A stretch of DNA of 64,000 nucleotides from contig OX597840.1 in the NCBI GenBank assembly GCA_951406725.2, positions 27,838,001 to 27,902,000 on the forward strand. The letters run 5' to 3'. How positions within the stretch are numbered: position 1 is the first letter of the stretch; each line of letters starts with the position of its first letter. This stretch comes from Octopus vulgaris (taxonomy: Eukaryota). This document shows positions 58,470 to 58,763 of this stretch, piece after piece. Position numbers and translations under genes: made by a program. A model generated the notes under the pieces. The model saw nothing but the letters and a program-made list of their open reading frames with translations. It ran no database searches and was not told the origin of the DNA.

Positions 58470-58763
58470 AGGGAATAAATCCAAATTTACAGGGAAAAAA
58501 TCAGATTTAGGATTAAATTCAATTTTATAGTAAAATATTATATAATATTATTAGAGACAAAACCACTATTTTGCAAAACAAACAAGGAAAGACTCAATCA
58601 ATACATAAAATGTTAATAAAAAGTCAAAAAAACCGCCACTACAATTGTTTCTTGTCTTGATCGACAATCTTCAGGTGGACTTCCAATAAGTCAGTTTCAA
58701 ATTATGAAGTCTTTCCTTGTTTGTTTTGCAAAATAGTGGTTTTGTCTCTAATAATATTATATA
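58470..58763 (-). mobile_element. Penelope-like terminal remnant with a fold-back inverted repeat, in (TA)n
   Basis: Perfect 56-bp arms at 58539-58594 and 58708-58763 enclose a hammerhead; the terminus is related to 35880-35950. Confidence 0.7.
58636..58678 (-). ncRNA. Minimal type I hammerhead ribozyme
   Basis: CCAC-CTGAAGA-TTGTC-GATCAA-GACAA-GAAA-CAATTG-TA-GTGG: intact core, stems I and II fully paired, palindromic stem III. Confidence 0.88.

Follow-up and report, generated by a model that had tools for sequence, protein, structure and literature searches.

Short intron-free copies of a Penelope-like element 5' UTR in the Octopus vulgaris genome, probably reverse-transcribed from spliced mRNA

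The fold-back locus and its hammerhead motif

The window analysed here is a stretch of 64,000 nucleotides of Octopus vulgaris (contig OX597840.1, positions 27,838,001 to 27,902,000), and the coordinates below are positions within it. Its longest perfect inverted repeat is a 56-bp fold-back with arms at 58539-58594 and 58708-58763, separated by a loop of 113 nt. A first-pass annotation had described this fold-back and placed it in a (TA)n tract, and (TA)n is indeed found on both sides, at 58386-58460 and at 58760-58855. The loop carries a minimal type I hammerhead motif on the minus strand, from 58678 to 58636, with a stem I of 4 bp, the core CUGAAGA (58674-58668), a stem II of 5 bp with a 6-nt loop, GAAA, the palindromic ACAAUUGU and a GUA whose A is at 58640; the predicted cut is at 58640/58639. 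The same annotation had called the motif intact, with these stems and this palindrome, had put the cut after the minus-strand GUA and had rated it the best ribozyme candidate in the window. We recovered the same parts and the same predicted site, and the core descriptor matched only here on both strands of the 64-kb window (mean of 0.01 matches in 100 dinucleotide shuffles).

The motif has the full core, helices I and II and short palindromic helix III of the minimal type I hammerheads of Penelope-like elements (PLEs), and as a ribozyme motif it is ordinary. A conserved G10.1-C11.1 pair, after an unpaired base, is named for PLE hammerheads in the part of the literature covered here (PMC4209133), whereas the core-proximal pair of stem II in the window is U-A. 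This pair varies among copies (U-U, A-U, mismatches), the first invariant G-C lying two pairs further out, and in related subfamilies the core is kept while loop II and the first stem II pair are changed. The best predicted fold of the monomer is not the hammerhead (-5.4 for the 43-mer as a hammerhead versus -6.5 kcal/mol), and the 96-nt context has a folding z of 0.07; two copies are predicted to co-fold at -24.0, versus -7.5 each, with an intermolecular helix III. Rfam returned 16 matches for 58560-58750, none of them a hammerhead, and no hammerhead family was among the best 150 of 398 matches for the whole window, where the matches are microRNA-like hairpins.

Near-perfect fold-backs near (TA)n also occur in the window at 24680-24816 and 33446-33565, the latter with a counterpart beside locus L027. 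These may be the head-to-head ends of further PLE families, or MITEs. Two apparent ORF relics, at 43345-43616 and 61404-61730, were dropped as low-complexity sequence in which an Asn-rich stretch matched in many registers.

An autonomous parent element

The layout had been likened to Penelope-like elements and a search for the autonomous parent proposed. A 41-nt hammerhead pattern gave 498 exact matches in the genome, and the search led to an element with an 840-aa ORF in the same genome. The DNA search of that genome produced 1188 candidates, and the 40 that were scored yielded 73 matches, with 98-100% identity for those of full length; the ORF was reached through opposite-strand pairs with wide spacing. 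A protein search then gave 151 matches; among the 150 listed, 12 lay in open frames of at least 820 aa, and 8 of 11 retrieved stretches had an ORF of 838-852 codons with a common start. The parent described here, L085, consists of a pLTR, the 840-aa ORF and a second pLTR in a unit of 6.3 kb, the pLTRs being 3.1-kb direct repeats that are 98.4% identical. Its order is exon 1, GT-AG intron, hammerhead exon, tail and ORF; the tail lies 55 nt before the ATG and the ATG about 290 nt after the acceptor.

The single ORF has an RT YRDD at residue 359, followed by a C-terminal GIY-YIG (VVYK...YIG near 733). KWK is found at 43 (RWK with R to K) and DKT at 128 (DKG to DKT), the homologues having mostly RWR/RWK and DKT. 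The CxCX5C linker is at 691, the only CxxC at 797 and CxH at 826, and CCHH is absent from the protein, by eye. Together with pLTRs that carry a hammerhead and with insertion into (TA)n, these are the motifs by which the Hydra clade is defined (PMC8557442, section 11). Judged by these motifs and by its likeness by eye to the published Hydra alignment, the parent is best placed as a young Hydra-clade PLE. Pfam detected neither an RT nor a GIY-YIG domain in the parent protein, and among 12 homologues RVT_1 was found in two and GIY-YIG in two, all below curated cut-offs; a PDB search gave no match. An assignment to Naiad PLEs was rejected, since these have an N-terminal endonuclease and no canonical hammerhead, while here the endonuclease motifs are C-terminal and the hammerhead is present.

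Several variations on the element were seen. The protein P0003 has a long Asn-rich insert between RT and linker (residues about 500-600), as in rotifer Penelopes. The pLTRs of L066, L085 and L092 contain internal tandem duplications, some of which add copies of exon 1 and its donor (GT, GTG and GA variants), and the distance from exon 1 to acceptor ranges in them from about 1.2 to 2.4 kb. Palindromic tandem arrays at L118-L125 (G000:C9:50396500-50399200) and L096-L098 are built of 250-nt and 324-nt units in which the ORF start is joined back to the UTR downstream of the hammerhead, so that the units are hammerhead-free; these arrays possibly come from circular templates.

The first-pass annotation had also seen a related terminus near 35880. 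The minus-strand segment 35879-35960, adjoining (AAT)n, aligns with the PLE tail with a score of 75, which none of 2000 shuffles reached (best shuffle 48), and is the tail of an older related PLE family. No CTGANGA core was found within 35700-36300. This older family, at 35879-36130, has a weak inverted start near 36125 and relatives in L019, L140 and L290.

Spliced copies and the 5' boundary

The hammerhead-bearing unit of the window starts at 58710, within the second arm, and we number it from there down the minus strand (q1 = 58710). In the parent, q1-23 are followed by GTAAGT, a GT-AG intron of 1845 nt in the 5' pLTR and 1828 nt in the 3' pLTR, and TTTTAG, after which the sequence resumes at q24 with the hammerhead. 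In the window copy q23 is joined exactly to q24, at 58687/58688, and the intron is precisely missing. Exon 1 thus spans 23 nt (58688-58710); the exon 2 body (58535-58687), with the hammerhead and the sequence downstream of it to an internal end that we call S, is 94-96% identical to both L085 pLTRs; and comparison with the parent places a tail of about 80 nt at 58458-58534, from S to an outer end, T. On this comparison we read the window copy as the 5' UTR of a PLE without its intron. Both the splicing of the copy and its anchoring at a likely transcription start had been overlooked in the first-pass annotation.

The genome contains 261 exact spliced junctions and 296 exact unspliced acceptors, and short intron-free copies of the front end of the element, with fixed ends and the predicted hammerhead motif, are found at about 200 near-identical loci. 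We sampled the first 60 distinct loci among 100 of the 261 junction matches listed. These loci have 77 arms with the junction. In 75 of the arms the exon 1 part is 15-23 nt long (the shortest detectable length being 14 nt), and in the other two, at one locus, it reaches 33. The position equivalent to 58710 is therefore likely, as far as this 5' wall indicates, to be the transcription start. For the base before q1, a pattern that left out the parental C gave 51 matches, of which 32 have G, 13 have A and 6 have T (P = 1.6e-5 for G versus one third). An extra G derived from the cap is known from LINE-1 work and processed retrocopies, and the non-parental G is likely a cap trace here as well; the reading is confounded because many copies also receive a G at the joint from the inverted arm. 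In the window copy the arms overlap in a 5-nt microhomology at 58707-58711 which includes a non-parental G at 58711, a candidate cap trace for which the inverted arm is a possible alternative source.

The intron is absent from every G-anchored copy examined (30 of 47). Of these, 21 were joined at the main donor and 8 at another lying 4 nt downstream, and the last shows a non-canonical intron-free joint. These figures include three rows that a script had labelled unspliced and that were re-read by eye, two as the downstream donor and one as the non-canonical joint. Six of the 8 downstream-donor copies have an exon-1 variant whose first GT is GA, and this variant was seen as DNA in L066 and L069. 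The use of an alternative donor when the first GT is mutated points to a product of splicing, not of DNA deletion. It largely refutes the idea that one pLTR lost its intron as DNA and that the short copies are 5'-truncated insertions of this deleted master. At least two loci (L128 and L129) do carry more than 100 nt of upstream pLTR on an intron-free junction, as a deleted master would, but only 5 matches at 4 loci genome-wide run 6 nt or more past q1, versus the 261 junctions, and neither the exact GT-AG borders nor the sharp 23-nt wall fits such an origin, which we regard as extremely improbable. Among the ORF-start loci (30 of 47 examined), 11 extend as far as the acceptor, and every one of these retains the intron. 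A query of exon 2 and the ORF start is present in contigs from public runs; these contigs, the only such data covered, displayed neither a transcription start nor a splice joint or a cut.

Two-ended fold-backs

A head-to-head second arm is present in 48 of the 60 loci. Forty-six of these 48 fold-backs combine an arm that stops at q176 (end S) with one that has the tail to about q253 (end T), a proportion with P = 4e-12 versus one half; none has two S or two T ends, and two are unclassified. The rule also holds for 10 of 10 further opposite-strand pairs, and the lone fold-back with two S ends is in L135, beside a sampled arm. The window conforms, the tail being on the minus-strand unit and the second arm (58708-58763, plus strand) being inverted, 5'-truncated and ended at S. 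A (TA)5 is present no more than 30 nt from each end in 55 loci and from a single end in the other 5, versus 9.6% per side at random window positions. A one-sided tail was already known for PLEs (PMC8557442).

In 9 of the 48 fold-backs the tailed arm is clearly truncated (L132, L140, L144, L152, L153, L158, L165, L171 and L172). These shorter arms bear a tail that is missing from the longer arm, and so are not snap-back copies of it. Inversion by self-priming, possibly on an antisense template, was proposed for rotifer Penelopes (PMC3846280), where the choice between antisense and unspliced sense templates was left open. It would suit the many joints centred on a short exon-1 palindrome (20 of 77 arms stop at 16 nt) and the variants common to both arms. 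Two fold-backs, however, combine different isoforms, and the intron was spliced out in the sense direction. An antisense template would not yield this result, which argues against such a template for the spliced copies. We hold self-priming to be very unlikely here.

The two arms agree at two polymorphic columns in 37 of 37 and 39 of 39 cases and at a third, next to end S, in 38 of 45; rare variants occur in both arms in 8 cases and in one arm only in 24. Among all loci retrieved, both arms cross the junction in 52 fold-backs, of which 46 are identical, 4 differ by 1-2 bases and 2 are the mixed isoforms, so that a single RNA template is not obligatory. This agreement suggests that both cDNAs come mostly from one RNA or one source and sometimes from two RNAs, and gene conversion between arms could be an alternative cause of their homogeneity. 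The transcript of the parent is without the fold-back stem, and the fold-back reads as a by-product, or scar, of insertion and not as a design of the RNA.

The first-pass annotation had taken the identical arms as a sign of a young insertion. Youth holds on other grounds: 101 arms average only 0.39% difference from the majority, with a median of 0, from which the family appears young. Arm identity itself does not date the insertion, because arms of one insertion nearly always share variants. The window copy departs from the majority at 5 of 256 columns. Two of these are polymorphic; the other three changes are private, and one of them, the substitution at 58595, ends the perfect arm at 56 bp.

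All 60 sampled loci are single units or head-to-head pairs, with no tandem or permuted units. This bears on the proposal that the copies are a self-propagating non-autonomous unit, similar to a retrozyme or SINE, which goes back to a single spliced copy and has spread in trans by way of hammerhead-cut or circular RNA. Such a unit would leave near-identical loci with fixed ends, of which about 200 exist, retrozymes have been argued to come from PLE pLTRs (bioRxiv 10.64898/2026.07.22.740005), and tandem arrays of other pieces of the family do occur (L097, L118-L125). Against it stand, besides the arrangement of the 60 loci, a 5' wall that lies 71 nt upstream of the cut site, the absence from the copies of sequence upstream of the start, and the several isoforms and variants, which point to repeated fresh splicing from several parents. 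On balance this proposal seems unlikely to us.

Proposed mechanism

We think it probable, from the sequences compared above, that the intron-free UTR copies arose when the PLE enzyme reverse-transcribed its own spliced, capped mRNA into (TA)n from internal starts. A capped and spliced mRNA starting at q1 would be bound by the enzyme at the tail in its own 5' UTR. Both strands of the target would be nicked by the enzyme, and one would prime at the outer tail site T and the other at the inner site S, usually with one RNA, or RNAs from a single source, as template for both. The two cDNAs would extend to the cap and join head to head through microhomology. Full elements would be made by priming at the unspliced 3' pLTR of long transcripts, and they keep the intron, on this model, because they are likely copied from that pLTR. 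Having neither an ORF nor upstream promoter sequence, the short copies are likely dead ends.

The meaning of intron retention in PLEs is called unknown by Craig et al. (2021, PMC8557442). The octopus family, which is young, has intact ORFs and contains spliced and unspliced products in the hundreds, puts the ideas on intron retention to a direct test and supports internal initiation at the genomic level. Earlier publications describe PLE hammerheads, inverted arms, one-sided tails, TA targeting and a 5' UTR intron. The literature listings and passages covered here contained no report of spliced, start-anchored PLE copies or of PLE twin priming.

Comparison with known elements

The C-terminal EN+ PLEs of the Hydra clade (PMC8557442) have, like the parent, a single RT and GIY-YIG ORF with KWK, DKT, CxCX5C and CxxC/CxH, and share with the octopus family a hammerhead in the pLTR, (TA)n targets, an inverted 5'-truncated arm and a tail at one end. 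The supplement of that paper includes Hydra-1_Obim, from an octopus, which by eye is a different family, in protein and in hammerhead. The parent is larger, with 6.3 kb and a 3.1-kb pLTR versus 'generally <3 kb', and the tail longer, at about 80 nt versus 30-40 bp (PMC8557442). About half of the junction-spanning termini of the octopus family are spliced, whereas the parts of PMC8557442 covered here make no mention of this for the Hydra clade.

Poseidon_Ac (PAc) of Anolis (Frangieh et al. 2024, PMC11167929) has in common with the octopus family two internal RT starts that bound the tail, both tail borders being start sites in vitro, as well as extension of both strands, AT-rich targets and a mainly uncut RNA template. 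Its ORF begins inside the hammerhead, in contrast to the octopus ATG about 290 nt past the acceptor. In the in vitro work reported there no difference in start site was seen between the strands, while the two ends of octopus fold-backs almost always differ; in the parts of the paper covered here splicing is not discussed.

Penelope of Drosophila virilis (Schostak et al. 2008, PMC2377424; Cervera and de la Pena 2014, PMC4209133) shares a start in the pLTR, a short first exon, a 5' UTR intron that ends next to helix I and a small palindromic helix III. The intron is 75 bp in Penelope and 1.8 kb in the octopus parent, and the genomic copies of Penelope, as far as these papers are covered here, keep it, in contrast to the hundreds of spliced octopus termini.

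Animal non-LTR retrozymes (bioRxiv 10.64898/2026.07.22.740005; PMC7229834) are likewise short non-coding units with type I hammerheads and related to PLE pLTRs, and are described in these sources as tandem repeats bounded by hammerhead cleavage. The octopus copies instead occur singly or paired head to head, and their limits are the likely start site and two priming sites; the tandem hammerhead units that define a retrozyme were absent from the 60 loci. In LINE-1 twin priming a 5' inversion arises from a second primer and leaves a microhomology joint; priming is on the poly(A), and the inversions rearrange the RNA sequence rather than duplicate it. Both arms of the octopus fold-backs, by contrast, copy the same segment from fixed internal sites.

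Possible traces of hammerhead cleavage

Most copies span the cut site, which indicates that the main template is uncut RNA. Copies with a non-A base before q72 gave 8 matches at 7 loci, all without the upstream hammerhead sequence. A wider pattern gave 69 matches, of which the script called 27 internal variants; by eye L254 was moved to the true ends and L282 and L283 to the variants, and the arms of L245 were counted once. Across q65-76 there are then 40 ends, 7 of them at q72, a site chosen beforehand, versus 2.0-2.6 expected under uniform truncation (P = 0.004-0.018), and 7 at q73 versus 4.0-4.7 expected. This excess suggests that the hammerhead may cut a few percent of templates in vivo. 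At L254 a poly(A) run is directly joined to a start at the predicted cut, the poly(A) having been added near q112, about 15 nt past an ATTAAA, a hint that a poly(A) site may lie upstream of the priming sites.

Minimal PLE hammerheads are described as cutting weakly and in a dimer-dependent manner (PMC4209133), and in the sections of PMC11167929 covered here RNA-seq detected no hammerhead cleavage in vivo. For the window hammerhead we predict weak cutting, in dimeric form or assisted by protein. Cutting is unnecessary for insertion, and in vitro insertion was independent of cleavage (PMC11167929).

We give roughly even chances to a broader reading, in which these copies are a record of the PLE cycle. 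Sense, capped and spliced mRNA would be copied on the 5' UTR starts and yield start-anchored dead ends; intron retention would be positional, only the unspliced 3' pLTR seeding a full element, with no antisense template; each of the two strands would have its own fixed priming site; and cleavage in vivo would be preserved to the nucleotide in a minority of copies, a weak first hint of such cleavage.

About 20 copies (L229-L294) share a C-to-T change in helix III, which makes a wobble pair, and often have a variant exon-1 end. Judged by these shared changes, this group represents a separate active source.
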